Assembly: GCA_039812725.1 (NCBI GenBank)
Contig: JBDIBD010000001.1
Location: 3,550 to 67,549, forward strand
DNA from: Vicinamibacteria bacterium
GTDB taxonomy: Bacteria; Acidobacteriota; Vicinamibacteria; Fen-336
DNA length: 64,000 bases
Direction: 5' to 3'
The notes beneath the pieces were generated by a model, which worked only from the letters and a program-made list of their open reading frames with translations, searched no databases and had not been told where the DNA came from. Numbering within the stretch: position 1 is the first letter of the stretch; each line of letters begins with the position of its first letter. Made by a program: the position numbers and the translations under genes. Below, one piece after another: positions 35,153 through 51,360 of the stretch.

Positions 35153-35182
35153 TGGCGCGGCGTCGGGTGGGCGGGGTGTGCA

Positions 35183-35448: not shown

Positions 35449-35793
35449 ATGGACCCGAGGAACCCGCACCGCCTGAACGACCTCCGCAGCCTGGCGATTC
35501 ATCGCCTGATCGCGGAGCGCATCGAGGCGGACCCGGGCTTGCTCGAAGGGGTTCGCCGACGGCTGGGGGACTTGGCCACACGGGGCGTCCTGCACCCCCG
35601 CTACGCCGCCGCGTGGGCGGAGCTGCTCGACGGCCCACTCGATCGGCTGCTGAGGACGCTGCGTGACGACGGCGAGCGGGCCACGGCCCTGCGCCAAGCA
35701 TCCCCCTTCTCCGGCATCATCGACCAGGCCACGCGTTGGCGCGTCTGGAAGGACGTCACGGCTGCCTGGCGGGCAGACCGGGGAGCGGCATGA
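35449..35793 (+). CDS. hypothetical helical protein, upstream partner of NTase-like gene (putative antitoxin)
   Basis: 114 aa; stop overlaps (ATGA) the start of the downstream gene. Confidence 0.45.
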   Translation: MDPRNPHRLNDLRSLAIHRLIAERIEADPGLLEGVRRRLGDLATRGVLHPRYAAAWAELLDGPLDRLLRTLRDDGERATALRQASPFSGIIDQATRWRVWKDVTAAWRADRGAA

Positions 35794-36359
35794 CCCGCAG
35801 CCAGCTCGAGCATGTGTTGCGGGCCGCGGCTGCCATCAGCGAGTGCTCGACGATCATGGTGGTCGGAAGCCAGGCCATCCTCGGTGAGCACCCCGACGCG
35901 CCCCCGGAGCTGCTCGTCTCGATGGAGGTCGACATCTACCCGCTCGAGCGCCCGGAGAGGGCCGACCTGATCGACGGCGCCATCGGCGAGGTGTCCGCCT
36001 TCCACGAGACCTTCGGCTACTACGCGCAAGGCGTGGGCCCCGAGACGGCGACGCTGCCAAGGGGCTGGGAGCGGCGGCTTGTACGGATCGTCGCCAGCCC
36101 CGCGGTCGGCCTGTGTCCCGAGACGCACGACTTGGTCCTGTCGAAGTACGCCGCTGGGCGGGAGAAGGACCGAGACTACGTCCGCGCCGCCGCACGCCAT
36201 GCACTTGTCCGGCAGGATGTGCTGCTCGCGAGGCTCGAGGACCTGCCCATCACCGAAGAGCACAGGATCCGCCTTCGCGGCCTCATCGGACAGGATTTCG
36301 CCCCCGGCCACGGGCTGGAGCAGTTCCAGACGGAGCCCGGGCCCGACCGGGAGCGCTGA
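35790..36359 (+). CDS. putative nucleotidyltransferase-fold protein (DUF6036-like); C-terminal 14 aa encoded by the palindromic repeat element
   Basis: MVVGSQAILGEHPD...MEVDIYP NTase-like; ends ...GLEQFQTEPGPDRER inside repeat copy A. Confidence 0.5.
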   Translation: MTRSQLEHVLRAAAAISECSTIMVVGSQAILGEHPDAPPELLVSMEVDIYPLERPERADLIDGAIGEVSAFHETFGYYAQGVGPETATLPRGWERRLVRIVASPAVGLCPETHDLVLSKYAAGREKDRDYVRAAARHALVRQDVLLARLEDLPITEEHRIRLRGLIGQDFAPGHGLEQFQTEPGPDRER

Positions 36360-36390
36360 CCGCGTCAGCGCCCCCGGGCCGGGACCGGCG
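36314..36390. repeat. GC-rich palindromic repeat element copy A (core GCGCTGACCGCGTCAGCGC, TGA on both strands)
   Basis: Seen in sequence; 8-bp perfect arms GCGCTGAC/GTCAGCGC flanked by CCCGGGCCCGACCGGG / CCGGGCCGGGACCGG arms. Confidence 0.7.
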
Positions 36391-36464
36391 AGCGGGTCAA
36401 TGTGGTCCTGGAGCACGGCCCACACCCGCGCCTCGACGGTCAGCAGCGCTACACTGCATGGGGC

Positions 36465-37052
36465 ATGGCGACCACGAGTCAGCGACCCACGGACGCCGAT
36501 CTTCTGGCGCTACCGCGTGTCGGCAAACACGAGGTGCTCGAGGGCGTGGTCCGCGTGAGACCAGCGAGCTGGGCTCACGAAGAGATCGTGGCCCGGATCA
36601 TCTACGAGCTCTCTGCGCACGTCCGAGCCAACCGGCTCGGGACCGTTCTCGGGTCCAACACGCTCTACTGCCTGCCTGGCGGCAACCAGCGCGCCCCCGA
36701 CGTGAGTTTCGTCGCCGCCGGCAGGCTCCAGCAAGCCGGAGCTGGCCCGTTCCCGCAGCTCGCCCCCGACCTCGCCGTCGAGATCCTATCCCCCGGACAG
36801 AGCCCCCGAGCGGTCGGAGATGCCGTCGGTGAGTATCTGGCCGCGGGAGTCCGCCTCGTTTGGGTGATCGACCCCGCCAAGCGTTGTGCGGCCTCGTACC
36901 GCTCGCTCACCGACGTGCAACACGCCGAGCTGGGTGGCTACCTCGACGGTCACGACGTCCTTCCCGGGCTCCGCTGCGCCCTCCAGGATCTCCTGCCGAC
37001 CCCTGGCCTGGAGCAGTTCGGGCCGGAACCGGGGCCCGACCGGGAACGCTGA
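36465..37052 (+). CDS. Uma2 family endonuclease (DUF820, PD-(D/E)XK-like)
   Basis: 196 aa; typical Uma2 layout; ATG at 36465; C-terminus ...GLEQFGPEPGPDRER lies in repeat copy B. Confidence 0.75.
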   Translation: MATTSQRPTDADLLALPRVGKHEVLEGVVRVRPASWAHEEIVARIIYELSAHVRANRLGTVLGSNTLYCLPGGNQRAPDVSFVAAGRLQQAGAGPFPQLAPDLAVEILSPGQSPRAVGDAVGEYLAAGVRLVWVIDPAKRCAASYRSLTDVQHAELGGYLDGHDVLPGLRCALQDLLPTPGLEQFGPEPGPDRER

Positions 37053-37080
37053 CCGCGTCAGCGACTCCGGTCCAGCTCCG
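37001..37080. repeat. palindromic repeat element copy B (ACGCTGACCGCGTCAGCG) providing stop codons for convergent genes 36465..37052(+) and 37058..37747(-)
   Basis: TGA at ~37050-52 (+) and TCA at ~37058-60 (= TGA on minus) both sit inside the palindrome. Confidence 0.7.
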
Positions 37081-37747
37081 GCGCGGGGCCCTCCAGGACT
37101 TCTCGCACCGCCGCCTCGACCGGGTCGATGTGGTCGTGGAGCACGGCCCATACGCGCTCCGGCTCGGCCACGGCGTAGCCGTGGATCAGGACGTGCCTGA
37201 GAGCCGTGATCTGCTCGGCTGGGATTTCCGGGTGCTCGGCCTTGAACCTCGGGCTCAGCTTGTACACCGCCTCGCCCAAGATGGTGAGGCAGCGTTCGGC
37301 GGCGAGCCGCTTCTCGTCCTGGGCGAGGTACGCCTCCCGCGTGACACCCGTGAGAACCAGGCGGGCCTTCGCGATGGCGCTGAGCACGTCCTGGAGGCGC
37401 TCCCGGTCGGTCATCCCCTCTTCGCCGGTGTCCGCGTCCGGCAGTTCGTCGAGCGGGCGCGCCTGCGCCAGGATCTTGTGGTGTCGCCCGGGCTCGAGGG
37501 TGTTGCGGGTGACGACGTCGACACGGCGGCCAAGGATCGCCTCAGCCTCGTCGTGGAAGGCTGCGATCTCGACCGCGCTGACGTCCGGGGGCGGATCGAC
37601 GAGGAGGTCCACGTCGCTGTCGGGCCGAGCCTGCCCGCGCGCGACGGAGCCGAACACGAGCACCGGGCCCATGCGCCGACGCTGCGCCGCGGCGGCCAGC
37701 GCGCGAGCAGCTGACGCCGTGATGACATTCACGCTCGGGCCCTTCAT
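37058..37747 (-). CDS. fused MNT-HepT protein (N-terminal minimal nucleotidyltransferase, C-terminal HEPN/DUF86)
   Basis: GSVARGQARPDSDVDLLVD (MNT motif); RHVLIHGY (HepT Rx4HxY); single 229-aa polypeptide. Confidence 0.75.
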   Translation of the reverse strand: MKGPSVNVITASAARALAAAAQRRRMGPVLVFGSVARGQARPDSDVDLLVDPPPDVSAVEIAAFHDEAEAILGRRVDVVTRNTLEPGRHHKILAQARPLDELPDADTGEEGMTDRERLQDVLSAIAKARLVLTGVTREAYLAQDEKRLAAERCLTILGEAVYKLSPRFKAEHPEIPAEQITALRHVLIHGYAVAEPERVWAVLHDHIDPVEAAVREVLEGPAPELDRSR

Positions 37748-37914
37748 GGTGCAATCACTCTACACCGCCACTCATGGAGCCGCTCCAGCCGGAACCCGGC
37801 CCGCACGCGAGTTGGCGGGCATGGAGCTGCTCCGGCCAGGGCCCAGCGGCGGCCGGGGACCCTGGCCCGGGGCCGGTCCCGCCCTCGATCCAGGTGGGCG
37901 TAGGCTACGGCCGC

Positions 37915-38289
37915 ATGAGAGAGGACTTGGAGGCGGAGCTGGTCGCACTCGCGCCGCCCTGGTTCGGCCAGGGGTTCCGCTTCTACTGCGGCGACGGCTG
38001 GTACTCGCTGCTGCGCGACCTGGTGGTGGCCCTGCGCGCCGTGGATCCTCCGGCCGGCTTCGAGATCACCCACGTGAAGGAGAAGTTCGGAACGCTCCGC
38101 GTCAGGTTCGAGGGCGGCTCGCAAGCCGTCGCGGACATGGTCATGGCCACGCAGCTTCGGAGCGAGAGCGTCTGCGAGGAGTGCGGCGCCTCCGCCGAGA
38201 CGACGCTGCGCAAGCTCGGTGGCCGCTGGGCAACACGATGCGGGCGGTGCCACCTGGGCGCGCAGACCGAGACCGCAACGCGTAGTTGA
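37915..38289 (+). CDS. hypothetical protein with C-terminal CxxC...CxxC zinc ribbon
   Basis: 124 aa; ...CEECGASAETTLRKLGGRWATRCGRC; internal ATG chosen (track ORF starts at 37774 through a Pro/Gly-rich leader). Confidence 0.4.
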   Translation: MREDLEAELVALAPPWFGQGFRFYCGDGWYSLLRDLVVALRAVDPPAGFEITHVKEKFGTLRVRFEGGSQAVADMVMATQLRSESVCEECGASAETTLRKLGGRWATRCGRCHLGAQTETATRS

Positions 38290-38341
38290 CGGACCTGAGG
38301 CGCCAACGGCACCAACTTGCCAAGCGTGGCATATTGGTGCC

Positions 38342-38974
38342 GTGCGCTACGAAGACCTTCTCGGAATCGTCGGGCGATGGCCCACGTTCGAGACCGGCTC
38401 GCTGCTGATCGGGCGTTGGGATCCCGCCGACGTGCGCCGTCAGCTGTCGCGCTGGGTGGCCAGTGGCCGTGTGCTGCAGCTGCGGCGGGGCCTGTACGCC
38501 CTCGCGCCGCCCTACCGGCGCGTCGAGCCCCACCCGTTCCACGTCGCCAACCAGCTCATCCTGGGCTCCTACGTGAGCCTGCAGGCGGCCCTGGCCCACT
38601 ACGGGATGATCCCCGAGGCCACCTTCAGCGTCACGAGCGTGACGCACCGCCGCGCTCGCGACTTCGACACGCCGCTGGGCCGGTTCATCTACCGCAACGT
38701 GAAGCAGGACCTCTTCGCCAGCTACGTGGCCGTCGAGCTCGGCCCAGGCGTCACGTACCACATCGCGACGCCGGAGAAGGCTCTGGCCGACCTGATCCAC
38801 GTGACGCCGCACGGGGACGACCCGGGCTATCTGGCCGAGCTGCGCCTGAACCTGTCCCGCTTCCGCTGGCGCGCCTTCGCCGGTTGGGCCGCCCACAGCG
38901 AGCGTGTGAAGCGTGCCCTGCCGCACGTCCGGGCCCTGCTGCGCGCCGAGGCGGACTTCAAGGAGCTCGCATGA
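38342..38974 (+). CDS. abiEi: type IV TA system AbiEi-family antitoxin
   Basis: N-terminal GRWPTFETGSLLIGRWDPADVRRQLSRWVASGRVLQLRRGLYAL (AbiEi_4-like); GTG at 38342; stop overlaps the abiEii start. Confidence 0.75.
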   Translation: MRYEDLLGIVGRWPTFETGSLLIGRWDPADVRRQLSRWVASGRVLQLRRGLYALAPPYRRVEPHPFHVANQLILGSYVSLQAALAHYGMIPEATFSVTSVTHRRARDFDTPLGRFIYRNVKQDLFASYVAVELGPGVTYHIATPEKALADLIHVTPHGDDPGYLAELRLNLSRFRWRAFAGWAAHSERVKRALPHVRALLRAEADFKELA

Positions 38975-39822
38975 GAGAGGACCTGCTGGCCCTGGCTCGG
39001 AGGCACGAGACCCCGGACGCGCGCCTGAACGTGGTCCGCGAGTGGCTCCAGGCCGCGATACTCAAGGGCCTCGAGCGCCGTGGGGCCATGGCAGCGCTGG
39101 CCTTCCACGGCGGCACGGCCCTGCGCTTCGTCTACGGCATCGGCCGCTACTCGGAGGACCTGGACTTCGCCTGGCACGGACCCCGGACGGCGGGCCAGCC
39201 CGCCGGCTGGCTCGGCCAGGTCAAGACCGACCTGTCCAACCTCGGCATCGCCTGTCGGGCGGGAGTCGCCGAACGGGAGCGCATGGTCGAGGCACGCTTC
39301 GAGTTCCCGGCGCTTGGGAAGGATCTGGGCCTGGAGGCCCTCACCGTCAAGGTCGTGATCGCCCTCCGCGCACCCGCCGCGGCTGGCCTCGAGGTGTCCA
39401 CGGTCACGCGCTTCCAGACGCTGTCGGTGAGGCACCACGACCGGCCGACCTTGTTCGCGGGGAAGCTCCACGCGCTCCTCCATCGGCGCCACACCAAGGG
39501 CCGCGACTACTACGACCTGCTCTGGTACCTGGGCCACCCCAGCTGGCCGGAACCGAACCTGCCGTTCCTGAACGACGCCCTGCGCCAGGTCGCCTGGAAG
39601 GGCGGAGAGCTGACGGCCCCGACCTGGCGCCCTGCCGTGCTCGCCCGCCTACAACGCGTGGACTGGGCCGCCGCCCGCCGTGACGTCGAACCGTTCCTCG
39701 AAGACCCCGAGGAGGCGCGCCTGCTCACGCGCGACGCCCTCGAACGGGCGCTTGCTGCGCCTCAGCGGACCTTCAGCATGCGTGACCTCGCCGATCCTCC
39801 CGGATCCGACCGGGAGCGCTGA
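38971..39822 (+). CDS. abiEii: AbiEii/DUF1814 nucleotidyltransferase toxin
   Basis: FHGGTALRFVYGIGRYSEDLDF signature; AAGGAG RBS; ATGA overlap with abiEi; C-terminus ...PPGSDRER from repeat half-copy C. Confidence 0.85.
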   Translation: MREDLLALARRHETPDARLNVVREWLQAAILKGLERRGAMAALAFHGGTALRFVYGIGRYSEDLDFAWHGPRTAGQPAGWLGQVKTDLSNLGIACRAGVAERERMVEARFEFPALGKDLGLEALTVKVVIALRAPAAAGLEVSTVTRFQTLSVRHHDRPTLFAGKLHALLHRRHTKGRDYYDLLWYLGHPSWPEPNLPFLNDALRQVAWKGGELTAPTWRPAVLARLQRVDWAAARRDVEPFLEDPEEARLLTRDALERALAAPQRTFSMRDLADPPGSDRER

Positions 39823-39830
39823 CGGCGGCA
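39800..39830. repeat. palindromic repeat element, left half-copy C (CCGACCGGGAGCGCTGAC)
   Basis: Seen in sequence. Confidence 0.5.
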
Positions 39831-39897
39831 CAGGGCAACGCAGCCCCCGGGGGGCTTTCGCCGCACCCGGTGCGTTGAATCGTGTCACAATCGACGC

Positions 39898-41079
39898 ATG
39901 TCGGACAGGGTCTACATCTGGCAGCAGCCCGACTGGCCACGGTGGCGCTACGACGCCGCGCACGTCAGCGGCGCTCTGGCCCAGGCGCACCACGCCCAGG
40001 GCCACCTCCTCGGGCGTACGGGCGACCTGGGCTTCGAGGTGCAGGGCCGGGCCCGACTCGACGCGCTGACCGAAGAGGTCCTGAAGACCAGCGCGATCGA
40101 GGGCGAGACGCTGCGGGTCGAGGCTGTGCGTTCGTCCGTCGCGCGGCGCCTGGGCGTCGACATCGGGGCCCTCGGCCCGGCCGACCGGCACGTGGACGGT
40201 GTCGTGGACATGGTGCTCGACGCGACCGCGCGCCATGACCAGCCACTCACGGCGGAACGCCTTTGCGCCTGGCACGCGGCGCTGTTTCCCACGGGCTACA
40301 GCGGCCTCCGGAAGATCCGCGCGGGGGCCTGGCGCGACGACGCCTCGGGACCCATGCAGGTCGTGTCCGGCGCCCTGGGCCGGGAGGAGGTCGTCCACTA
40401 CCAGGCCCCGCCGGCCGCCGGGCTCGAGGCCGACCTGGCCGCCTTCCTGGCCTGGTTCAACTCGGACGAGCCGGGCGACCCGCTGATCAAGGCCGGCCTG
40501 GCGCACCTGTGGCTCGTGACGCTGCACCCGTTCGACGACGGGAACGGCCGCATCGCTCGCGCGGTGGGGGACATGGCGCTGGCTCGCGCCGAGCGCTCCT
40601 CCCAGCGCCTCTACAGCCTCTCCGCCCAGGTGCAGCGCGAGCGCGCGGACTACTACGCCGTCCTCGAGCGCACCCAGGCCGGCTCGCTCGACGTGACCGA
40701 CTGGCTCGCCTGGTACCTGCGCTGCCTGCTGCGGGCGCTGCAGGGCGCCGAGCTGACCTTCGACGCGGTGCTGCACAAGGCCCGCTTCTGGCAGCGCTGG
40801 GCCGGCACGACCTTCAACGCCCGCCAGGTGAAGCTGCTCAACCGGCTGCTCGACGGGTTCGACGGCAAGCTGACCAGCAGCAGGTGGGCGGCGCTCGCCA
40901 GGTGCTCGCACGACACCGCCCTGCGCGACATCTCGGCCCTGCTCGAGCGCGGGGTGCTGGTGCGCGCCGCGGCCGGCGGCCGCAGCACCCACTACCTCCT
41001 CGGTGACGCGCCCTCGGGCTTGGACCGCGGCATGGAGCAGTTCCAGCCGGAGCCCGGCGGGACCGACCGGGAACGCTGA
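39898..41079 (+). CDS. Fic family protein (N-terminal DUF4172 + Fic/DOC domain)
   Basis: Fic motif HPFDDGNGRIARA; 393 aa; C-terminus ...MEQFQPEPGGTDRER from repeat half-copy D. Confidence 0.85.
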   Translation: MSDRVYIWQQPDWPRWRYDAAHVSGALAQAHHAQGHLLGRTGDLGFEVQGRARLDALTEEVLKTSAIEGETLRVEAVRSSVARRLGVDIGALGPADRHVDGVVDMVLDATARHDQPLTAERLCAWHAALFPTGYSGLRKIRAGAWRDDASGPMQVVSGALGREEVVHYQAPPAAGLEADLAAFLAWFNSDEPGDPLIKAGLAHLWLVTLHPFDDGNGRIARAVGDMALARAERSSQRLYSLSAQVQRERADYYAVLERTQAGSLDVTDWLAWYLRCLLRALQGAELTFDAVLHKARFWQRWAGTTFNARQVKLLNRLLDGFDGKLTSSRWAALARCSHDTALRDISALLERGVLVRAAAGGRSTHYLLGDAPSGLDRGMEQFQPEPGGTDRER

Positions 41080-41085
41080 GCAGGC
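41034..41085. repeat. palindromic repeat element, left half-copy D
   Basis: GAGCAGTTCCAGCCGGAGCCCGGCGGGACCGACCGGGAACGCTGA. Confidence 0.5.
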
Positions 41086-41111
41086 ACCTCGGCGCGCGGG
41101 GCCTGGACTTC

Positions 41112-41531
41112 CTACAGTTCGGCCAGGCTCCTGACGTGGCGGGCCAGGGGGCCTACCCCCAAGGCCCGAACAAGACGCTCGTCGGCCGTCACCAGGGTGC
41201 AGTCGTGGGCGACTGCCAAGGCCACGTAGATCGCGTCGTAGACCGTTCTCCCGTGAGCCAGCGCAATCTCCAGCGCGGCCGCCGTCAGGTCCCGACTCGG
41301 CGTCACCGCCAGCGGCACCTTGCTGATCCCCGAGAGCACGGCCCTGGCTTCGGCGGTGGTCAGCTCCCGGCGAGACACCTTCTTCCAGAGGACGTTCCCC
41401 AGCTCCGCGAACAGGAGGTCCGGCGCCAGCAGGTCCCGTGTCCCGTCCAGCAGCCCTTCGGCCTCAGCCGACAGCTCTTCCGGGACGAACCACTTGATCG
41501 CGACCGCGCAGTCGACCACCACAGCGCTCAA
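41112..41531 (-). CDS. vapC: VapC (PIN domain) toxin
   Basis: 139 aa; PIN layout (VVVDCAVAIKW..., conserved acidic residues); overlaps vapB by ATGA. Confidence 0.8.
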   Translation of the reverse strand: MSAVVVDCAVAIKWFVPEELSAEAEGLLDGTRDLLAPDLLFAELGNVLWKKVSRRELTTAEARAVLSGISKVPLAVTPSRDLTAAALEIALAHGRTVYDAIYVALAVAHDCTLVTADERLVRALGVGPLARHVRSLAEL

Positions 41532-41758
41532 CGCGCGCGATCCTCCCGCAGCAGATCCACGCTGTCGGTGTGGCTCCGGCCGCCCAGCTTCCGACGCAGC
41601 TGCGCCGCCAGCGTCCGGACCCCAGCCCAGTCCTCGGCAGCGGCGGTCTCGAGAATCACGCGCAGCTCGGCCTCCAAGGACCGCCCCCGACGCTTGGCGC
41701 GGTCCTTGAGCTTCGCGACCACGGCGCCGTCGAGGTCTCGAATCAGCACTTGTGCCAC
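41528..41758 (-). CDS. vapB: VapB-type antitoxin (RHH/FitA-like)
   Basis: 76 aa; MAQVLIRDLDGAVVAKLKDRAKRRGRSLEAELRVIL typical RHH antitoxin. Confidence 0.7.
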   Translation of the reverse strand: MAQVLIRDLDGAVVAKLKDRAKRRGRSLEAELRVILETAAAEDWAGVRTLAAQLRRKLGGRSHTDSVDLLREDRAR

Positions 41759-41770
41759 GGCCCCCCCAAG

Positions 41771-41792
41771 ACGCTAGCTAGCAGAATGCTAG
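41771..41792. promoter_or_regulatory. GCTAGC-repeat palindromic motif (CGCTAGCTAGCAGAATGCTAGC) just upstream of vapB; candidate operator/promoter for VapB autoregulation
   Basis: Seen in sequence; RHH antitoxins bind palindromic operators (established); coordinates approximate. Confidence 0.35.
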
Positions 41793-41860
41793 CACCGAGA
41801 CGTGCAGCCGGCCACCTGCCGCGAGCGGCGCCCACGCTGGCGCGGGCGTCCCTGCGCCCC

Positions 41861-41935
41861 CGCGTCAGCGGCCCCGGTCCGGCTCCCGGGAAGGGGGTGG
41901 GGCCAGGTCGGCCATGGTCATCCGGCGGACCGGCA
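41861..41935. repeat. palindromic repeat element, right-half long variant copy E (CGCGTCAGCGGCCCCGGTCCGGCTCCCGGGAAGGGGGTGGGGCCAGGTCGGCCATGGTCATCCGGCGGACCGG), not attached to a gene
   Basis: Same ~72-bp sequence recurs at 43866-43935 and 51403-51475. Confidence 0.65.
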
Positions 41936-42046
41936 GGAGGCTGGGCCGTGTACGCCGCCTTTCACTCATCGGCCCGCCTGGCGCAGTGTTGCCAATTGGT
42001 GCGACATCGGGTAATATTCCTACCCACAAGCAGACTCTGTAGCAAC

Positions 42047-43832: not shown

Positions 43833-43844
43833 GCGCTGCGCCGG

Positions 43845-44098: not shown

Positions 44099-45263
44099 GC
44101 GCCTGCTCCGAGCTCAGGTCCGCACACGACTGCACGAGCAGCGTCTCGTCGCCCCGAACCGCCAGGAAGTCCACCTCATAGCCCGAGCGCGTGCGGACGT
44201 AGCGCAGCTCGTACCCCCGCCGGCGCAGCTCGAGGAAGACCGCGTTCTCGAGCAGGTGCCCGGTGCCCTCACCCGCGCGGGCATAGAGCCTGGCGAGGCC
44301 CGTGTCGACCGCATAGACCTTGCGCGGGTTCGAGTGCTCCACCCGCAGCGAGCTGGCGGCGATCGGGACGGTGAACACCAGATAGGCGTCCTCCAGGTAC
44401 TCCAGGTACTCGTACACGGTGTTCTTGCTGACGAGCAGGCCCTGCGAGCGCATGTCGTTGTGCACACGATGCACGCTGAAGAGCCCCCCGACGTTCGCCA
44501 GGAGGCTGGCCTGCAGGTAGCGCAGCGCGGGCACGTTGGCGATGCGGTAGCGGTCCACGATGTCGCGCATCAGGACGACGCTGACGTAGCCGCGCAGGAT
44601 CTCCCGGAACGTGGCGTCGTCGCGGATCTCCTGGACCGCCGGGAAGCCGCCCTGCTGGAGGAAGAGATCGAAGGCCGACGCGAGGGTGTGCCTCTCGCCG
44701 GCCGGGGGCGGGAAGCGCTTCGGCACCGGCAGCCGGGCATGCCTGAGCGACTCGTCGAACCCGAAGGGCAACAGCTCCGTGGTCACGCTGCGACCGCGCA
44801 TGGCGGTGCCGATCTCCCGTGAGAGCAGCTTCGAGGACGACCCGCTCAGGACCACCCGCACTCCGTCGTCGAGCAGGCGCCGCACGAACGGCTCCCAGCC
44901 CGGGACGTTCTGGATCTCGTCCAGGTAGAACTGGGCCTGTTGCGGCCGCGTGGCGGGGTGCCGCCGGAAGAAGGCCTCGGGAACGAGCTGCAGCTCGTCC
45001 GCGCGCAGGCCGAGCAGACGCTCGTCCTCGAAGCTCAGGTACAGGAGCCGGTCGCGGCCTACGCCCGCGCGCTCCTGCTCCTGGATCTGCTGCAGCATGA
45101 GGGAGGTCTTCCCGCTCCGGCGCATGCCGATGACGACGTCTGCCTGGCCGGGAACGGCGGGCAGGCGGACCCTGCGGGGCGTGAGCGCTGGCAGCGACCG
45201 CGTCTCGAAGTCGGCCACCAAGGTCTCGATGACGCTGGCGCGGCCCCCGACCTGTCTCTCCAC
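43872..45263 (-). CDS. AAA+ ATPase with DUF4143 (AAA_14 family)
   Basis: 463 aa; P-loop GMRRSGKTS; DUF4143-like C-terminal region; GTG start at 45263. Confidence 0.8.
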   Translation of the reverse strand: MERQVGGRASVIETLVADFETRSLPALTPRRVRLPAVPGQADVVIGMRRSGKTSLMLQQIQEQERAGVGRDRLLYLSFEDERLLGLRADELQLVPEAFFRRHPATRPQQAQFYLDEIQNVPGWEPFVRRLLDDGVRVVLSGSSSKLLSREIGTAMRGRSVTTELLPFGFDESLRHARLPVPKRFPPPAGERHTLASAFDLFLQQGGFPAVQEIRDDATFREILRGYVSVVLMRDIVDRYRIANVPALRYLQASLLANVGGLFSVHRVHNDMRSQGLLVSKNTVYEYLEYLEDAYLVFTVPIAASSLRVEHSNPRKVYAVDTGLARLYARAGEGTGHLLENAVFLELRRRGYELRYVRTRSGYEVDFLAVRGDETLLVQSCADLSSEQARERESRALAEALEEHPSATPLVVSRLESEPLQLCDGRQVPVRPAWRFALELPEPVRRMTMADLAPPPSREPDRGR

Positions 45264-45370
45264 GAGGGACAGATTATCACGAATGTGTCCCTTGGCGGGA
45301 GATACATTTCAGGCAGCAGCTCAACCTCTGCCGGCATTCGCTTGCGCATAGCTGCGCCCAGCGTTACTTT

Positions 45371-46174
45371 ATGGGCGTGGATGCGGGGATCCGCGCCTCT
45401 GACGCAGTGGACGACCTTGCGGCCCGGGGACGGTACTCCTTCACCACGGCAGAGATGCGCCGCCTGCTCGGCACCTCGGACGTGGCCACGCGCGCGGCCC
45501 TGCGCCGCCTCACCGCCAAGGGCAAGCTGGCCATGCCCGCTCGTGGCTTCCACGTCATCGTCCCGCCCGAGTACCGCACCCTGGGCTGCCTTCCCGCAGC
45601 GCAGTTCGTGCCCGACCTCATGCGGCACCTGCGGCTGCCGTACTACGCCGGCCTGCTGACGGCCGCCGCGTATCACGGCGCCAGCCACCAGGCGGTCATG
45701 GTCTTCCAGGTGGTCCTCCCCAGGACCCGCCGCCCGATCGAGTGCGGCCGCGTCCGGGTCGAGTTCGTGGCGCGCAAGAACGTCGACGCCGTGAAGTGCC
45801 AGGAGATGGCCACGCCGCGTGGGATGCTCCGCGTCTCCGCGCCCGAGGGCACCGCCCTCGACCTGGCCGGCTACCCGCACCACGCCGGCGGCCTGTCGAG
45901 CGTCGCTACCGTCCTGGCCGAGCTGCGCGAGCGCCTCGACCCGGCCGGGCTCGCACGCGCGGCCGAGTCCGTCCCGGTGCCCTGGGCGCAGCGTCTGGGC
46001 TTCCTCCTCGACCTGGTCGGCGGGGGGGACTGCACGCCCCAGCTCGCGGCGCACGTGGCCCGCCGGGCCAAGGACTACGTCCTCCTCGCCCCCGGCCGAC
46101 CGGCCCAGAACGCCACCAGGGACAAGCGCTGGCGCGTGCGGGTCAACGCACCCGTCGAGCCCGACGACCTGTGA
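45371..46174 (+). CDS. abiEi: type IV TA system AbiEi-family antitoxin
   Basis: 267 aa; AbiEi N-terminal HTH-like region (AEMRRLLGTSDVATRAALRRLTAKGKLAMPARGFHV). Confidence 0.75.
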   Translation: MGVDAGIRASDAVDDLAARGRYSFTTAEMRRLLGTSDVATRAALRRLTAKGKLAMPARGFHVIVPPEYRTLGCLPAAQFVPDLMRHLRLPYYAGLLTAAAYHGASHQAVMVFQVVLPRTRRPIECGRVRVEFVARKNVDAVKCQEMATPRGMLRVSAPEGTALDLAGYPHHAGGLSSVATVLAELRERLDPAGLARAAESVPVPWAQRLGFLLDLVGGGDCTPQLAAHVARRAKDYVLLAPGRPAQNATRDKRWRVRVNAPVEPDDL

Positions 46175-47022
46175 TCCCGGCCGACTACATCGCGGAGTGG
46201 CGCACGCTCGGCCCGGCGCCCTGGCCCACCGACGCCCAGGTGGAGCAGGACCTGCTCCTCAGCCGCGCCATCGTGGCCCTCTACTCCGAGCCGGACGTCG
46301 CGAAGGCTCTGGCCTTCCGCGGAGGCACCGCCCTCTACAAGCTCTACGTCCACCCACCACGGCGGTACTCCGAGGACATCGACCTCGTGCAACGCGAGGC
46401 AGGACCCATCGGTTCCACGATCGACGCCGTGCGCCGAGCGCTCGACGGCTGGCTGGGCCAGCCCAAGCGCACCATCAAGGACGGCCGCGTGGTCATGTAC
46501 TACCGCGTGCCGGGCTCCGGCGGGCCCGAGGAACGGCTCCGCATCAAGGTCGAGGTCGACACCCGCGAGCACTTCTCCTCCTACGGCATCGTCACGCGCA
46601 CCGTGCGCATGGCCTCGCGCTGGTCTGCGGGGGAGGCTCGCGTGCGGACCTACGTCCCCGACGAGCTGCTCGCCACCAAGCTGCGAGCCCTGTACCAGCG
46701 CAAGAAGGGGCGGGACCTGTTCGACCTCTGGACGGCCTGCCAGGCCCTCACCATCGACCCGGCACGCGTGGTGCGCAGCTTCCTCGACTACATGGCCCAC
46801 GACGGACTGCGCGTGTCCAGGGCCGACTTCGAGGCCAACCTGCGCGAGAAGCTCGCCGACCCGGAGTTCTGCGCCATCGACAACCTCCTGGCCCCCGGCA
46901 CTCCCTGGAGTCCCGACCAGGCCGGCCAGCTCGTGCTCGACGCCTTCCTCCCGCTCCTCGAGCGCGAGAGGCCCGGCGTGGAGCGCTTCCGGCCAGCGCC
47001 CCGGCGCGGCCCGGAGCGCTGA
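46171..47022 (+). CDS. abiEii: AbiEii/DUF1814 nucleotidyltransferase toxin
   Basis: FRGGTALYKLYVHPPRRYSEDIDL signature; GTG overlapping abiEi stop (GTGA). Confidence 0.85.
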   Translation: MIPADYIAEWRTLGPAPWPTDAQVEQDLLLSRAIVALYSEPDVAKALAFRGGTALYKLYVHPPRRYSEDIDLVQREAGPIGSTIDAVRRALDGWLGQPKRTIKDGRVVMYYRVPGSGGPEERLRIKVEVDTREHFSSYGIVTRTVRMASRWSAGEARVRTYVPDELLATKLRALYQRKKGRDLFDLWTACQALTIDPARVVRSFLDYMAHDGLRVSRADFEANLREKLADPEFCAIDNLLAPGTPWSPDQAGQLVLDAFLPLLERERPGVERFRPAPRRGPER

Positions 47023-47153
47023 GCGGGCGAACCCTGGCCCGGCTCCGTTCGCCGTCTCCCCCGGATGGCCCCTGCTCCAGGAGGAGCGCCGGCAAGAGCG
47101 ACCGACAAGGTCCGCGGCAGTCTGTGGTATGTTCTTTTCCGAAAGGAACGGAC

Positions 47154-47741
47154 ATGAATGCCGTCCGCCTGGAACCGGGACGAGTCTATAGAACCCGCGA
47201 CCTCGCTCGCTGGACCAGCAATCCGCCACGGCTGGCCCGCCAACTCGTGCGAGAGGGCGCGCTCACGCGTCTCAGCCGTGGGCTCTTCGCGAGCCCGACG
47301 CCCAGCCGGTTCGGGCCGGCCCCCCCCACGGACACGGCCCTCTTGCGCGGCTTCCTCCACAACAGCCCCTTCGTAGTCACAGGGCCGGAGCGCTGGAACG
47401 CCCTCGGCCTCGGTACGACCGCGGTCTTCCCCTCGACGCTCGTCTACAACACCAAGCGCTCCGGCCGTTTCAGACTGGGCGGGAGGAGCTTCACCCTGCG
47501 GCGCGTGGCGTTCCCCAAGAACCCAGCGCCCGAGTGGTTCGTCGTGGACCTGCTCGAGAACGCAGCGCACGTGGGCTCCGACGCGGCCACCATCTTGGCC
47601 GCCGTGCGCGTGGCGCTGGCACAACGACGGTTCGATCCGACCGGGCTGCTCACGATGGCAGACCGCTACGGGACACGAGCCACCCTGCGGTCGATCTCCC
47701 AGGCGGTGAAGGGCGCGTCCTCACCCGAGCGCGACCGGTAG
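47154..47741 (+). CDS. AbiEi_4-like N-terminal domain protein (solo, no AbiEii partner)
   Basis: MNAVRLEPGRVYRTRDLARWTSNPPRLARQLVREGALTRLSRGLFA; AAAGGAA RBS; followed 77 bp later by a metallophosphoesterase gene. Confidence 0.6.
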   Translation: MNAVRLEPGRVYRTRDLARWTSNPPRLARQLVREGALTRLSRGLFASPTPSRFGPAPPTDTALLRGFLHNSPFVVTGPERWNALGLGTTAVFPSTLVYNTKRSGRFRLGGRSFTLRRVAFPKNPAPEWFVVDLLENAAHVGSDAATILAAVRVALAQRRFDPTGLLTMADRYGTRATLRSISQAVKGASSPERDR

Positions 47742-47817
47742 AGGCCAGCGCGCGAGCCGCCCCCGAACCACAGCCGCGCGAAGCGCCCTGCGGCCCCCAG
47801 CCTGCTACGCTTCCGCG

Positions 47818-48651
47818 ATGCCTCTCGTGCGTCCGGGCTCGAAGGGCGACAAAGTCGCGCTGGCCATCCTGGTCTGCGGCACGGCCCTCGCCCTGTACGC
47901 CTTCCTGGTCGAGCCGTACTGGATCGCGGTCACGCGGCTGCACGTCCCCGCGCCCGTCGCCCGCAAGCTCGTCATCGCGCACGTGGCCGACCTGCACACC
48001 TACGGCCTCGGCCGGCGCGAGGAGACGCTGCTCGGCCTCCTCGAGCGGGAGCGCCCCGACGTGATCGTTCTCTCCGGCGACCACCTGGTCGACGGAGACC
48101 TGCGCAGCCCGCCGTTGGGCCTCCCTGACGACCCCAGCTACGCCATGGCCGCGCCGGTCCTGCGCCGCCTCTCGGCCCCGCTCGGCGTCTACGCCGTGCG
48201 TGGGAACTGGGAGGTGGCTCGCCACACCCCCGACGAGCGCGGGTTCTACGCGGGCGTGGGCGTGCGCCTCCTCGTCAACCAGGCGGCCCAGCTTGTCCCC
48301 GGGGTCTGGCTGGCCGGCCTCGACGATGCCGGGCCGAACGCGGAGGAGGCGGCCCGCGAGGTCCCGGCGGGGGCGTACGTCGTTGCCTTCTTCCACTCCC
48401 CGGCCATCTTCGACCGCGTGGCCGGACGTTGGCCCCTGGCCCTGGCCGGACACACCCACGGGGGGCAGGTCGTCATCCCCTTCTGGGGCGCGCCGTGGCT
48501 CCCACCCGGCAGCGAGCCCTACACTGCCGGCACCTACCTCAAGCTGGAGTCGCAGCTGCACGTCAGCCGCGGCATCGGCACGGCCATCCTGCCCGTCCGC
48601 TTCGCCTGCCGGCCCGAGCTGGTCCTGGTCACCCTCACGCCGGACTCTTGA
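47818..48651 (+). CDS. membrane-anchored calcineurin-like metallophosphoesterase
   Basis: N-terminal TM helix (VALAILVCGTALALYAFLV); MPE motifs AHVADLH, GDH, GNWE, GHTHGG. Confidence 0.8.
   Translation: MPLVRPGSKGDKVALAILVCGTALALYAFLVEPYWIAVTRLHVPAPVARKLVIAHVADLHTYGLGRREETLLGLLERERPDVIVLSGDHLVDGDLRSPPLGLPDDPSYAMAAPVLRRLSAPLGVYAVRGNWEVARHTPDERGFYAGVGVRLLVNQAAQLVPGVWLAGLDDAGPNAEEAAREVPAGAYVVAFFHSPAIFDRVAGRWPLALAGHTHGGQVVIPFWGAPWLPPGSEPYTAGTYLKLESQLHVSRGIGTAILPVRFACRPELVLVTLTPDS
48541..48625 (+). repeat. direct repeat copy 1 (3' end of metallophosphoesterase gene), ~95% identical to 48922-49005
   Basis: CAGCTGCACGTCAGCCGCGGCATCGGCACGGCCAT..TGCCCGTCCGCTTCGCCTGCCGG..CCGAGCTGGTCCTGGT present twice, flanking the Phd-like gene. 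Confidence 0.7.
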
Positions 48652-48670
48652 CCGGCTCCCGGAGGCGCCC

Positions 48671-48910
48671 TTGGTCACCATCGACATTCACGAAGCCAAG
48701 ACCCAGCTCTCAACGCTGGTCGATCAGGCCGCTCGGGGCCAGGCCTTCGTGATCACGAAGGCCGGCAAGCCCCTGGTCAAGGTAACGCGGCTGGGTGCGT
48801 CCGCGCGGCCACGCCGCCTGGGCTTCCTGGCCGGCGAGATCGAGGTGCCCCACGACTTCGACCGCATGGGCGTCACGGAAATCGAGACCCTGTTCGGGAG
48901 CGACGCGTGA
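48671..48910 (+). CDS. Phd/YefM (prevent-host-death) family antitoxin, apparently orphan
   Basis: TIDIHEAKTQLSTLVDQAARGQAFVITKAGKPLVKVTRL matches Phd/VapB-Phd type antitoxin; TTG start after GGAGG; no toxin gene follows. Confidence 0.55.
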   Translation: MVTIDIHEAKTQLSTLVDQAARGQAFVITKAGKPLVKVTRLGASARPRRLGFLAGEIEVPHDFDRMGVTEIETLFGSDA

Positions 48911-48921
48911 GGGTTCAGCCG

Positions 48922-49005
48922 GGGTCACAGCTGCACGTCAGCCGCGGCATCGGCACGGCCATATTGCCCGTCCGCTTCGCCTGCCGGGTCCGAGCTGGTC
49001 CTGGT
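48922..49005 (+). repeat. direct repeat copy 2 (duplicate of 48541-48625)
   Basis: See copy 1. Confidence 0.7.
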
Positions 49006-49022
49006 AAGGTCTGGTCAGCGCT

Positions 49023-49577
49023 TCAGGGCGTCAGGGCGCACCGCCAGCTCGCCTGGTCTCTCAAGCGTCTGCAGACGGGGTCATCCGCCAGGCGTCGACA
49101 CGCGGCGACAGCCTCCGCGTCACCACCCTTCGTGCCAACCCTGTGTGAGAACACCACTCTCTCCTCCCAGGGCCCGAGGAGCTCGGCACAGTAGAGGCAG
49201 TAGAGCGCGCCGGTCTGGCAGCTGACCAACCAGGTGCCCGTGGCCACCAGCCGCCCGGACTGAACCAAGGAGCAGTCCTTCTCACCGCGGGGGATCTTGC
49301 TGTTGATCGCCGCGATGCGCGCCACGTCGTCGTGGGGATCGTCGCGGCAGAAAAGGCGCGCGAGGCGTCTGTCCCCGGAGTGGATGCCGGCGTCGGCGCT
49401 GACGACCCTGTACTCGCCGGGGGTGGGCCGTATCGGGCCACTGTGTGCGGGCGCGGCGCTCCTGAGGGCCCGCGAGAACAACGCCCGCTGGGCGGCCACG
49501 CCCAGGAGCGAGACGGCCGCCGTCACGAACACGGCGACAACGAGGGAGCCGCGCAGCGAGGCACGAGGCAGGACCAT
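49023..49577 (-). CDS. membrane-anchored Cys-rich hypothetical protein
   Basis: ATG at 49577 with GGGAGG RBS 8 nt upstream; N-terminal TM (LVVAVFVTAAVSLLGVAAQ); 184 aa. Confidence 0.5.
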   Translation of the reverse strand: MVLPRASLRGSLVVAVFVTAAVSLLGVAAQRALFSRALRSAAPAHSGPIRPTPGEYRVVSADAGIHSGDRRLARLFCRDDPHDDVARIAAINSKIPRGEKDCSLVQSGRLVATGTWLVSCQTGALYCLYCAELLGPWEERVVFSHRVGTKGGDAEAVAACRRLADDPVCRRLRDQASWRCALTP

Positions 49578-49747
49578 GGGGGGACCTCCCGGTTTGCGAG
49601 AGACCAGCCGCCGCCAAGGGTAGCACCCAGCGGTGGCCTCCCAAGGGCCCAGAACTCGGCCAAGGGGCCGTCGAGCGCCTGGCCCCCGTGCTCGCGGGCC
49701 AACGTCCACATCCCAGATGGCATGCTACGATATGCCAGGTGGTGCAC

Positions 49748-50221
49748 ATGGGCGCAGCCCCAGCCGAGCTCGAGGAGTACCGCAGGGACATCGCCGCCGG
49801 CCGCGCCGGCGCGTACCGCTTCGTCGGCCTCATGGGCCTGCCCTCGCGCGACCCGCTCGACCTCGCCAGGCGCGTGGCCAGGGGCCTGTCCTTCGCGGCC
49901 CTGGAGCGCTTCCGGCGCAACGCCGGCCTGTCCCTGAGCGAGGTGGCGGACGCCACCGTCATCCCGCTCAGCACCCTGCACCGGCGCAAGAAGGAGCGGC
50001 GGCTCGAGCCACAGGAGTCGGACCGCCTGCTGCGCGTCTCGCGTGTCTTCGGCCGCGCCCTGGAGCTGTTCGAGGGCGACAACGACGCGGCGCGGCGCTG
50101 GCTCGCCACGCCCCAGCGCGCCCTGGGCGGGGAACGCCCCCTCGACCTCGCCAGGACCGACGTCGGAGCGCGCGAGGTCGAGGCCCTGGTCGAGCGGCTC
50201 GAGAACGGCGTCCTCACCTAG
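49748..50221 (+). CDS. Xre/MbcA/ParS-like antitoxin (DUF2384) of RES-Xre module
   Basis: 157 aa; C-terminal ...AARRWLATPQRALGGERPLDLARTDVGAREVEALVERLENG matches DUF2384; AGGTGG RBS. Confidence 0.75.
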   Translation: MGAAPAELEEYRRDIAAGRAGAYRFVGLMGLPSRDPLDLARRVARGLSFAALERFRRNAGLSLSEVADATVIPLSTLHRRKKERRLEPQESDRLLRVSRVFGRALELFEGDNDAARRWLATPQRALGGERPLDLARTDVGAREVEALVERLENGVLT

Positions 50222-50228
50222 CCGCACC

Positions 50229-50690
50229 GTGCCCAGCGCCTGGCGCCTCACCAAGACCAAGTACCTGTCCACCGCCTGGGATGGCGCCGGGGCGCGCCGG
50301 GCCGGCGGGCGCTGGAACAGCCCGGGCGTGCCCGTGGTCTACACGTCGGAGACCCTGGCCCTCGCGCTCGTCGAGATCCTCGTGCACCTGCCCAGTGGCC
50401 TGCTGCCGGCCTACTCGGCCATCCCGGTGGAGTTCGACGAGGGCCTGGTGACGACCGTGCGGCCGCGCCAGCTGCCCCACGACTGGCAGGCGAGCCCGCC
50501 TCCACCCGCCACCCAGGCGCTGGGCGACGCCTGGCACGCCGCCGCCACCAGCGTCATCCTGCGTGTCCCGAGCGCCGTCGTCCCGCAGGAGTGGAACTAC
50601 GTCGTCAACCCCGACCACCCCGACTTCGCCCGCCTTCGCATCGGGACGCCACGCACCTTCCCGTTCGATCCGCGCCTCGCCAAGCCCTGA
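50229..50690 (+). CDS. RES domain toxin (NAD+-targeting RES family)
   Basis: AWRLTKTKY...AGGRWNSPGVPVVYTSETLALALVEILVH matches the RES domain; GTG start 8 nt after antitoxin stop. Confidence 0.8.
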   Translation: MPSAWRLTKTKYLSTAWDGAGARRAGGRWNSPGVPVVYTSETLALALVEILVHLPSGLLPAYSAIPVEFDEGLVTTVRPRQLPHDWQASPPPPATQALGDAWHAAATSVILRVPSAVVPQEWNYVVNPDHPDFARLRIGTPRTFPFDPRLAKP

Positions 50691-50754
50691 TTCCGCCTGC
50701 GTGGGCCCCGCGCCCAACGCGATGCCCCTTCCCACAGGCGTATCCTGTGGGGCG

Positions 50755-51360
50755 ATGTCGCCCACCTACACCGAGTACGTCGAGCTCGAAGCGCGAAGTC
50801 CCGTGCGCCACGAGTTCGTGAACGGTGAGGTGTTCGAGATGGCGGGCGGCACGCCCGCCCATGGTGCGCTCGCCTCGGCGCTGGCCCGCGACCTGGGATC
50901 TGGCCTGCGTGGCAAGCCCTGCCGGGTCTTCTCCTCCGACGTGCGGGTGTTCGTGAAGGAAACCGGCCTCGCCACCTACCCGGACCTGTGCGTCGTCTAC
51001 GGCACCCTCGAAACGACCGACGAGGACAAGGACGCGCTCGTGAACCCGGTGCTGCTGGCCGAGGTGCTGTCTCCCTCGACGGAGGCCTGGGACCGAGGCG
51101 GCAAGGCGGCGCACTACCGCCGCATCCCCTCCCTGCGCGAGATCCTGTTCGTCAGCCCTGACGGGCGGCTGGAGGTCCAGCGCCGCAGCGAGCGTGGCGT
51201 CTGGGAGCTGGTCGACGCGCGGGTCGGAGAGAGCCTCGAGCTCACGTCCCTGGGTGTCGTGCTCGACGTCGCGGAGCTGTTCCACGACCCGCTCGCCTCG
51301 GGGCCCTCTGATCTGCAGCGCCTCGCCCAGGGCCCCGGCAGGTCCACGCCGGAGCGCTGA
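50755..51360 (+). CDS. Uma2 family endonuclease (second copy)
   Basis: 201 aa; Uma2/DUF820 layout; 3' end runs into repeat copy G (…GRSTPER*). Confidence 0.75.
   Translation: MSPTYTEYVELEARSPVRHEFVNGEVFEMAGGTPAHGALASALARDLGSGLRGKPCRVFSSDVRVFVKETGLATYPDLCVVYGTLETTDEDKDALVNPVLLAEVLSPSTEAWDRGGKAAHYRRIPSLREILFVSPDGRLEVQRRSERGVWELVDARVGESLELTSLGVVLDVAELFHDPLASGPSDLQRLAQGPGRSTPER

Follow-up and report, generated by a model that had tools for sequence, protein, structure and literature searches.

The 64,000-nucleotide (nt) stretch of contig JBDIBD010000001.1 of a Vicinamibacteria bacterium (assembly GCA_039812725.1), hereafter called the window, carries at 35449-51360 an island of toxin-antitoxin (TA) and defence genes in which at least six unrelated gene families have a lineage-specific palindromic sequence in common, which takes the place of their stop codons and coincides with many breakpoints between related contigs. 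This ~50-nt sequence, called tail A below, ends the genes in frame, is read as ...G[LM]EQFQPEPGxDRER followed by the stop codon, and has the consensus GGCATGGAGCAGTTCCAGCCGGAGCCCGGnGGGnCCGACCGGGARCGCTGA. Another form, tail B, is the 3' end of the ATPase type (~75-88 nt). In the window, the genes that stop at the TGA of the tail are those of the DUF6036 nucleotidyltransferase (NTase), both Uma2, AbiEii-1, AbiEii-3 and Fic, with a degenerate version in AbiEii-2, and the minus-strand MNT-HepT and ATPase genes end likewise, in inverted tails. When the relatives are included, the stop codon is the tail TGA in DUF6036-NTase, Uma2 (three kinds), AbiEii (four kinds), Fic, MNT-HepT and ATPase genes. 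Read directly, only one frame of the tail holds a stop.

Where a direct tail meets an inverted tail, a palindrome forms with the centre CGCTGA-N4-5-TCAGCG, and the consensus joint is a GC-rich hairpin of 20 pairs closed by a 4-5-nt loop of variable sequence; the centre, GACCGGGARCGCTGA, is the most conserved part of the tail. An earlier note, made from the letters of this DNA, had reported palindromic repeats and duplicated fragments, and these are real. At up to three mismatches the 17-mer CCGACCGGGAGCGCTGA is present in 11 copies for 1.4 expected (0 of 100 shuffles reach 11), and a tail profile detected 12 significant copies in the window, all within 36310-51452, and 17 in the seven related contigs searched. 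The same profile gave no copy in the other ~48 kb of the window, and none was found in the relatives' contigs beyond the modules that they share with the window. That the palindromes are translated 3' tails, at which many rearrangements break, is a point absent from the earlier note.

The tail is an in-frame add-on that replaces the native stop and adds roughly 15-25 residues. The closest Fic homologue outside the lineage, from Variovorax paradoxus (76% nt and 67% amino acid (aa) identity, 372 aa), ends at residue 371 of the window protein, which continues for 22 more residues that are the tail; the end of the Variovorax protein thus coincides exactly with the start of the tail, which takes the place of the native stop. 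Plasmid homologues of AbiEii-3 do not go past residue 266 of 283; of the homologues listed for MNT-HepT, nearly all extend no further than residue 219 of 229, with three reaching 226-228; and the ATPase relatives outside the lineage, at most 56% identical and mostly about 430-460 aa long, leave the last ~23 residues uncovered. The nt identity of Fic, measured over 39911-40959, is to a gene on a 2.5-Mb V. paradoxus replicon and points to a fairly recent transfer between distant, similarly GC-rich bacteria.

Relatives were found through exact-protein look-ups and represent six independent assemblies (L099, L110, L112/L116, L113/L114, L117 and L118), whose shared modules have 72-97% nt identity to those of the window. 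Organisms of this lineage occur in sequencing runs SRR14610242, SRR1027651, SRR28579827, SRR17604962, ERZ15185814 and ERZ28614894 and in assembly GCA_054403255.1. The earlier note had suggested a hotspot for the acquisition of defence cassettes and had asked whether related genomes keep the same genes in an identical, conserved order; in all six assemblies gene order or content differs from the window, the same modules being found in other arrangements, which supports the hotspot. MNT-HepT converges with Uma2-1 in the window, with a different Uma2 in L116, with AbiE-1 in L099 and with an AbiE-3-like pair in L118, and the slot before the ATPase 3' end is occupied by AbiE-2 in the window, by AbiE-1 in L112 and by a three-gene cassette of unknown type, with a tail, in L117. 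The Fic module stands in three different contexts across the window and its relatives; in L116, from the same sequencing run as L112, it lies between the helix-turn-helix (HTH) gene orthologous to 32003-32773 and the Uma2 gene preceding MNT-HepT, and L117 retains Fic-VapBC. L099 holds an intact AbiE-4 pair together with an AbiEii-3/Fic chimera, L113/L114 lack about 19 kb and run straight from the 3' end of the gene at 31410 into the 3' part of RES, and L110 keeps the last 150 nt only of AbiEii-1 and a joint of tails A and B, adjoining an FGE-sulfatase gene. Inverted tails bound Uma2-1 and AbiE-2 of the window as well as the L099 Uma2. A synteny comparison with a distant relative, L115, reached through an S9 peptidase (63% aa identity), showed the peptidase alone in common and so gave no core flanks.

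Three pieces of the window are missing from L112, to which it has 95-97% nt identity. The 4.0-kb block is flanked by a 22-nt direct repeat, GGATCCGACCG(G/C)GAGCGCTGAC, at 39803-39826 and 43847-43870; at this site L112 has a single ordinary joint of tails A and B, and an independent contig, L098, confirms the left junction of the block at 100% identity. The insert with AbiEi-4 sits about 12 nt past the TGA of the AbiEii-3 tail and has microhomology only at its junction, and ~100 nt of the metallophosphatase 3' end are present in direct orientation on both sides of Phd (48542-48643 and 48917-49018).

The tails themselves vary independently of the bodies that carry them. One body is followed by different tails in AbiEii-1 (window and L099) and in Uma2, where the fragment at 35183-35395 has 93% nt identity to the 3' part of the intact L116 gene and the homology stops exactly at the boundary of body and tail. 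One tail is likewise found on different bodies, the window Fic tail having 100% identity over 52 nt to the L116 Uma2 tail and 96.8% to that of the AbiE-3-like pair in L118. The Fic tail of L116 looks hybrid, its 5' half being that of the window Fic tail and its 3' half another, a pattern that would be expected if the Uma2 module had entered by a crossover within the tail. At the orthologous Fic-VapC joint of the window and L117, the tail is ~82% identical and its flanks ~96-97%. Since tails are swapped in this way and diverge beyond their flanks, they have been exchanged or converted faster than their surroundings. These alignments show the tails as preferred breakpoints and the modules, each with promoter, genes and tail, as the units of gain, loss, replacement and relocation.

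The 18-mer core of the tail gave 97 single chance matches in 185,579 species-representative genomes, none of them continuing into the remainder of the tail. Searches with the palindrome centre and with a bipartite tail pattern gave no true copies in JGI metagenomes or IMG/VR viral contigs, and a plasmid blastn search with the whole joint returned one spurious match. Against 1.84 billion protein representatives, the tail-peptide profile had two true matches, both from this lineage: a C-terminal fragment of AbiEii-1 and a 103-aa chimera made of the AbiEii-3 N-terminus, the Fic C-terminus and the tail. A word-indexed search of a 5.8-billion protein set yielded one further match, a 60-aa truncated VapC fused to the tail. 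The genome, metagenome and viral scans rule out a widespread repeat family, and the scarcity in both protein sets rules out a widespread C-terminal peptide signal. Because the tail is nearly absent from all the sets searched, the repeat belongs to one narrow, uncultured lineage.

Two chimeric open reading frames (ORFs) carry the tail. The first 55 aa of AbiEii-3 are in frame with the last 48 aa of Fic and the tail at 6028-6339 of L099, and in P0005 the first ~35 aa of a VapC precede a Fic-type tail. Both are deletion products that retain the tail frame; the chimeras were detected by a protein search for the tail, which returns in-frame fusions only. In practice this calls for caution, since such repeats interrupt short-read assemblies and give rise to chimeric ORFs (P0004, P0005). 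A second type of 3' end was also seen, the Uma2 fragment (35360-35395) ending in ...TATAARS and a 131-aa ORF (38254-38289) in ...TETATRS, each before the stop codon; the similarity is weak (about 27 of 36 nt identical) and may reflect another tail type or chance.

Gene calling in the window (~70% GC) relied on a codon-bias model, trained on its long genes, and the genes were then scanned with Pfam and PADLOC (Table 1). This reproduced the earlier gene list at its coordinates, and the claim that almost every gene of the ~16-kb stretch belongs to a TA or abortive-infection (Abi) family stands: 18 of the 22 genes in 35449-51360, which make up about a dozen small modules, match such families, so that the clustering of defence and TA genes that defines a defence island is present, and the modules lie on both strands, as had been said. 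The four exceptions are the metallophosphatase and the small ORFs at 35449-35793, 37894-38289 and 49023-49577. The limits first given to the island leave out remnants on both sides, which widen it to about 31.4-53.2 kb: the outlying DUF6036 pair, a Uma2 fragment, an ATPase fragment and the AbiE-5 stump. Two intact Uma2 genes are where they had been placed, and the Uma2 fragment is a third, C-terminal copy that had been overlooked. The same holds for the AbiE modules, of which three AbiEi-AbiEii pairs had been reported and were all found, a fourth, orphan AbiEi and the remnant of a fifth module having been missed. With its orphans, fragments and deletions, much of the island is decaying.

Table 1. 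Features of the island and its surroundings in the window (module numbers as used in the text).
Feature	Position	Strand	Evidence and remarks
MobF/TrwC relaxase with AAA_30 helicase, 923 aa	20667-23438	-	~31% identical to plasmid MobF relaxases
Outlying DUF6036 module: nucleotidyltransferase; winged HTH/AbiEi_4-like partner	31410-32006; 32003-32773	-	Pfam
Uma2 C-terminal fragment, 70 aa	35183-35395	+	tblastn, 41.5% identity to Uma2-1 residues 150-202
DUF6036 nucleotidyltransferase; 114-aa partner	35790-36359; 35449-35793	+	Ends in tail A, ...GHGLEQFQTEPGPDRER then stop; partner has no family match
Joint: tail A (+), then inverted orphan copy of HepT 3' end	36310-36432		Centre GCGCTGA-CCGCG-TCAGCGC
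Uma2-1 (PD-(D/E)XK, PDC-S03)	36402-37052	+	Pfam, PADLOC; ends in tail A
Joint: Uma2-1 tail A opposing inverted MNT-HepT tail	37002-37103		
MNT-HepT, fused, single ORF, 229 aa	37058-37747	-	NTP_transf_2 residues 29-97, HepT 122-217; ends ...PELDRSR then stop
Tail debris: two partial direct tails and one inverted piece	37748-37893		
AbiE-1 module, with promoter and operator palindrome: AbiEi; AbiEii	38306-39826: 38342-38974; 38971-39822	+	Ends ...SMRDLADPPGSDRER then stop
Block absent from L112, 4.0 kb: Fic, VapBC, orphan tail B, AbiE-2	39827-43846		
Fic (DUF4172 and Fic), SoFic-like	39898-41079	+	Pfam, PADLOC; 22-aa tail PSGLDRGMEQFQPEPGGTDRER then stop
VapC (PIN); VapB (FitA-like ribbon-helix-helix)	41112-41522; 41528-41749	-	Pfam; module without tail
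Orphan tail B	41860-41947	-	75-nt copy of ATPase 3' end (99% identical) plus AGGAGGCTGGGCC
AbiE-2 module: sigma-70-like promoter; AbiEi; AbiEii	41948-43869: 41989-42017; 42047-42844; 42834-43832	+	
AAA_14-DUF4143 ATPase (PDC-S01)	43872-45263	-	Pfam, PADLOC; last ~23 residues ...MADLAPPPSREPDRGR, then stop, are tail B
AbiE-3 module: AbiEi_1; AbiEii	45339-47029: 45371-46174; 46171-47022	+	Ends ...GVERFRPAPRRGPER then stop
Insert absent from L112, 760 nt: inverted degenerate tail (47023-47090) and orphan AbiEi-4	47035-47790		
AbiEi-4, fourth, orphan AbiEi	47154-47741		Intact AbiE-4 pair in L099
Calcineurin-like metallophosphatase, non-TA	47827-48651	+	Pfam
Phd insertion, 375 nt, missing in L112	48613-49018	+	
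Orphan Phd without toxin, in this insertion	48671-48910	+	
ORF of 184 aa	49023-49577	-	No family match
Xre (MbcA/ParS-type) antitoxin; RES toxin	49739-50221; 50229-50690	+	Pfam
Uma2-2	50755-51360	+	Pfam, tail profile; degenerate tail ...GPGRSTPER then stop
ATPase 3' fragment including tail B	51396-51625	-	95% nt, 93% aa identity to 43872-44098
AbiE-5 remnant: promoter/operator ACTTGCCATCCGTGGCAAGT joined directly to internal AbiEii fragment	52995-53205	+	
IS21 remnants: IstA C-terminal piece; IstB split into two ORFs	53213-54329; IstB ORFs 53527-53889 and 53865-54329		Mu-transpos_C_2 in IstA piece

AbiEii-1, AbiEii-2 and AbiEii-3 match PF08843 (AbiEii/DUF1814 nucleotidyltransferase) at 82-123 bits for a cutoff of 22.5; AbiEii-1 and AbiEi-1 reach 177 and 151 bits with the PADLOC AbiEii and AbiEi models, AbiEi-3 reaches 171 bits with AbiEi_1, and AbiEi-1 and AbiEi-2 lie under the Pfam AbiEi_4 cutoff (22-23 bits vs 25). 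As in AbiE type IV systems, the AbiEi genes are upstream of AbiEii with overlaps of 4-11 nt, and the nucleotidyltransferase motif (GGTAL and D[LI]D) is present in all three AbiEii. The longer signature GGTAL...RYSED(L/I)D, which had been attributed to the three modules, is found in AbiEii-1 and AbiEii-3, AbiEii-2 reading GGTAL...RLSVDLD. Since the three pairs are mutually only 27-32% identical, they are separate acquisitions, and their origin by local duplication is ruled out. The limits of the AbiE-1 module were set by homology with L099, L112 and L117. AbiEii-2 has a degenerate tail-like end of its own, ...LERFPPAPRGDFDR before the stop, which is followed by a duplicated tail core at 43844-43869. 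The AbiE-5 remnant, directly followed by the IS21 remnant, is 95% identical at the nt level to L113/L114, where the module is intact and its AbiEii ends in ...RGMEQFQPEPGGADRKR before the stop.

Among the other modules, the L118 orthologue of the outlying DUF6036 pair is 95% identical, its partner there matching AbiEi_4, and the true start of Uma2-1 is probably the ATG at 36465. MNT and HepT, fused here, are annotated as two genes in most of the plasmid homologues listed. L110 carries the same orphan tail B, followed by the same 13 nt (AGGAGGCTGGGCC). Inverted repeats of the form TTGCCA...TGGCA or TGGCAT...ATGCCA were seen at 38306-38341, 41989-42046, 49700-49738 and 53010-53040, just 5' of AbiEi-1, AbiEi-2, Xre-RES and the AbiE-5 stump, respectively, and are probably autoregulatory operators.

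We propose, with slightly better than even confidence, that TA and defence modules, each self-contained, form a hypervariable array in the island and are exchanged by recombination breaking in the tails or at their edges. Each module has its own promoter, in several cases with an operator-like palindrome, one or two genes and mostly a lineage-specific 3' tail; where two modules converge, or where a module faces an orphan inverted tail, the two tails can form the ~20-bp hairpin at the stop codons. Modules would be gained, lost, replaced and moved through recombination in or at the edge of the tails, the likeliest route being the recombination of small excised circles or of incoming related DNA with a resident tail, and duplicated tail cores, hybrid tails and orphan arms would be left behind. 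Ordinary short-homology and illegitimate events would occur in the region too. The hairpin would probably also be a bidirectional terminator insulating the autoregulated modules, a role that we infer from its position, since the joint hairpins have no T-run. By analogy with their families, the TA genes may serve as addiction and abortive-infection modules, in which AbiEii would be a nucleotidyltransferase, RES would degrade NAD+, VapC would be an RNase of the PIN type, HepT an RNase under the control of MNT and Fic an AMPylating enzyme.

Recombination from tail to tail is favoured because it accounts for the duplicated core as well as for hybrid tails and orphan arms and tolerates the insertions and deletions (indels) that do not involve tails. 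Several observations weigh against it. An integrase, a transposase other than the IS21 remnant and a REP-associated tyrosine transposase (RAYT) were not found in the window or in the contigs of the relatives, and two of the three indels relative to L112 are without tails as flanking repeats, one having microhomology and the other the ~100-nt gene 3' end, so general recombination also shapes the region. The folding z-scores of the joints are modest (-0.1 to -2.5) and covariation is seen in 1 of the 20 hairpin pairs; selection for the hairpin structure is therefore unproven. In L099 one tail lies behind a native stop codon and several tails are orphans, and translation of the tail is therefore not obligatory. 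Finally, the relatives are short metagenomic contigs, so that the repeat may be spread genome-wide.

In the chief conventional alternative, the tails would be copies of a selfish, lineage-specific palindromic repeat of the repetitive extragenic palindrome/bacterial interspersed mosaic element (REP/BIME), enterobacterial repetitive intergenic consensus (ERIC) or miniature inverted-repeat transposable element (MITE) type, a ~110-130-nt unit (A+/B-) that has spread into the 3' ends of genes of the island, where selection would retain the copies stopping at the TGA of the element and the rearrangements would be a by-product of numerous repeats lying near one another. We consider this possible and rather doubtful. 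The imperfect palindromes with 4-5-nt loops that vary in sequence, the number of copies (12 in the window and 17 in the relatives), the orphan and partial copies with tandem debris and the restriction of a fast-evolving family to one lineage are all in agreement with it, as are the near-identical tails at non-orthologous joints (L116 and L118 vs the window Fic tail) and the recurrence of the A+/B- unit as a block in the window, L099, L110 and L112; with a single stop-bearing frame, selection alone could enrich in-frame copies. Such a repeat is harder to reconcile with the lack of copies in ~48 kb outside the island and in the relatives' contigs beyond the shared modules, and with tail-A copies that, when borne by genes, are nearly all in frame and start at the native protein end, one being behind the native stop. 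Moreover, the right arms are genuine 3' ends of the ATPase and HepT genes, and the sequence examined yielded no RAYT or transposase. A dedicated site- or structure-specific recombinase, encoded outside the window, for example on the element with the relaxase, and inserting or excising modules at the tail hairpin, in the manner of IntI at attC or, as proposed, of Xer at pdif sites, is in our opinion clearly unlikely. It would fit the presence of the 22-nt core at both ends of the 4-kb block, with the second copy isolated after the complete tail of AbiEii-2, the hybrid-looking L116 tail, insertions at the palindrome centre or within about 12 nt of it, the modules bounded by inverted tails (Uma2-1, AbiE-2 and the L099 Uma2), the conservation of the tail centre and the MobF relaxase 12 kb away. 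Its gene was found neither in the window nor in any related contig, the spacer varies in length (4-5 nt) and sequence, unlike the core of tyrosine recombinases with a fixed overlap of 6-8 bp, a scan of the island gave no attC R''/R' pairs, and the other indels of the region use unrelated repeats. That the tails are sites of an undescribed integron-like cassette capture, in which a recombinase elsewhere on the element would recognise the two-tail hairpin, insert or excise whole modules and thereby fuse captured genes, at their stop codons, to a common translated joint, likewise seems improbable to us.

A cassette array of the classical integron type, or a cluster of attC sites lacking an integron-integrase (CALIN), deserves hardly any credence. 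The layout is cassette-like, TA modules are abundant and palindromic sites lie at ORF 3' ends, as such an array would have it; no RYYYAAC...GTTRRRY pair, as in the 57-141-bp attC sites, spaced by about 40-150 nt was found on either strand of 35000-53500, the modules have their own promoters and both orientations, their sites being inverted along with them, and neither IntI nor another tyrosine recombinase was found among the scanned genes of the 64-kb window. The missing attC motifs, the module promoters and the mixed orientation rule this candidate out. The chance that the island is a static, vertically inherited TA cluster with chance GC-rich palindromes is close to nil; the high GC content (~70%) alone speaks for it, and it is refuted by the shuffle tests and by the differing gene orders of the six related assemblies. 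An island targeted to a tRNA or tmRNA gene was also rejected, the window being without tRNA, and no known RNA family reached its gathering score in the window (Rfam). A diversity-generating retroelement, a homing element and an orphan array of polymorphic toxins were discarded as well, since a reverse transcriptase and a conserved 5' head are lacking and only the last ~50 nt are shared.

By its architecture, the array is nearest, among described systems, to the pdif-module arrays of Acinetobacter plasmids, with integron arrays second. In those plasmids, TA and resistance genes between inverted Xer sites come and go among near-identical plasmids and leave hybrid sites, and the mobility mechanism is still unproven (PMC7885321). 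The likeness lies in small adjacent modules, often of TA type, bounded by inverted palindromic sites, in their presence/absence or inversion between relatives, in the hybrid sites at junctions and in the conjugative-element setting; modules between inverted sites (Uma2-1, AbiE-2 and the L099 Uma2) and the single joint of L112 correspond to the pdif pattern. The 28-bp pdif sites, with 11-bp XerC/XerD arms and a fixed 6-bp spacer, were not recognised in the tail centres, the joints here having 50-90-nt arms and a 4-5-nt loop and being GC-rich, lineage-specific and translated as gene ends. In the comparison with the dif consensus, the tail centres are without resemblance to dif. Sedentary chromosomal integrons are described as rich in TA modules (PMC13108822). 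Integrons and CALINs resemble the array by their small cassettes, by an imperfect palindrome near or overlapping the ORF end, by their TA content and by their reshuffling between relatives; they differ in that here attC motifs and IntI are missing and the site is in frame within the coding sequence. Promoterless cassettes in the same direction are not what was found, three minus-strand modules having inverted tails and promoter- or operator-like sequences being present upstream.

Lineage-specific imperfect palindromes acting as recombination hotspots are also the mark of REP/BIME, ERIC and the Rickettsia palindromic elements (RPE), the last of which Ogata and colleagues reportedly described in 2000 in frame inside protein-coding genes. 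The repeat here differs from REP and RPE in being confined to the island in the available sequence, in its position at the extreme C-terminus, in supplying the stop codon and in its arms, which are often the true 3' ends of convergent neighbours. Cis-mobilisable elements (CIMEs) are integrase-less elements that accrete in tandem at the att site of an integrative and conjugative element (ICE); the ~22-nt direct repeats around an integrase-less 4-kb block, near a relaxase-bearing segment, recall them, whereas here there are many joints instead of one att site, palindromic joints, units of 0.4-4 kb and no integrase in view. As in defence and TA islands, AbiE, Fic, HEPN/MNT, RES, PIN and candidate genes (PDC-S01, S03, S09) are dense and lie near restriction genes; a common translated joint sequence is not described for such islands in the literature searched.

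A modular TA and defence island is as such of a known kind, and the new element is the translated joint that replaces the stop codon. TA and defence genes cluster and turn over fast, and, except in integrons and in pdif modules, which are still unproven, the joints of their exchange are mostly unknown; in this island, the physical joints can be seen in the sequence. If a dedicated enzyme does act on the tails, they would represent a third kind of cassette system; otherwise, they would illustrate clearly how short dispersed repeats in nature structure the exchange of modules and, as a side effect, give unrelated proteins a shared peptide.

The whole window is accessory DNA. The MobF relaxase suggests that the segment belongs to an ICE, an integrative and mobilisable element (IME) or a plasmid, and the array may be part of an integrative or conjugative element; no gene of a type IV secretion system or coupling protein was identified among the window genes scanned. 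A second defence block at 1-14746 includes an MmeI/Eco57I-like methylase (cut by the window edge), HNH, GmrSD with a RAMA domain, a 1393-aa protein with NERD, Ser/Thr kinase and RNA polymerase alpha-CTD domains and a VWA(CoxE)-DUF5682-AAA_5 trio. On the other side, the island is adjoined by a toxin-like SpvB/TcdB/FG-GAP/RHS-repeat protein of 2096 aa (54914-61204, minus strand), and TPR proteins are also encoded in the window. The outlying DUF6036 module is flanked by paralogous Sel1-repeat proteins (28482-31343 and 32862-33644), the larger of which has many internal repeats and a putative trypsin-protease-like C-terminal region, recognised by eye. Between this module and the array lies the gene of a 397-aa Schlafen/AlbA_2-domain protein (33748-34941), missing in L116, which is followed by an acidic, Ser/Asp-rich ORF of 55 aa (34985-35152).

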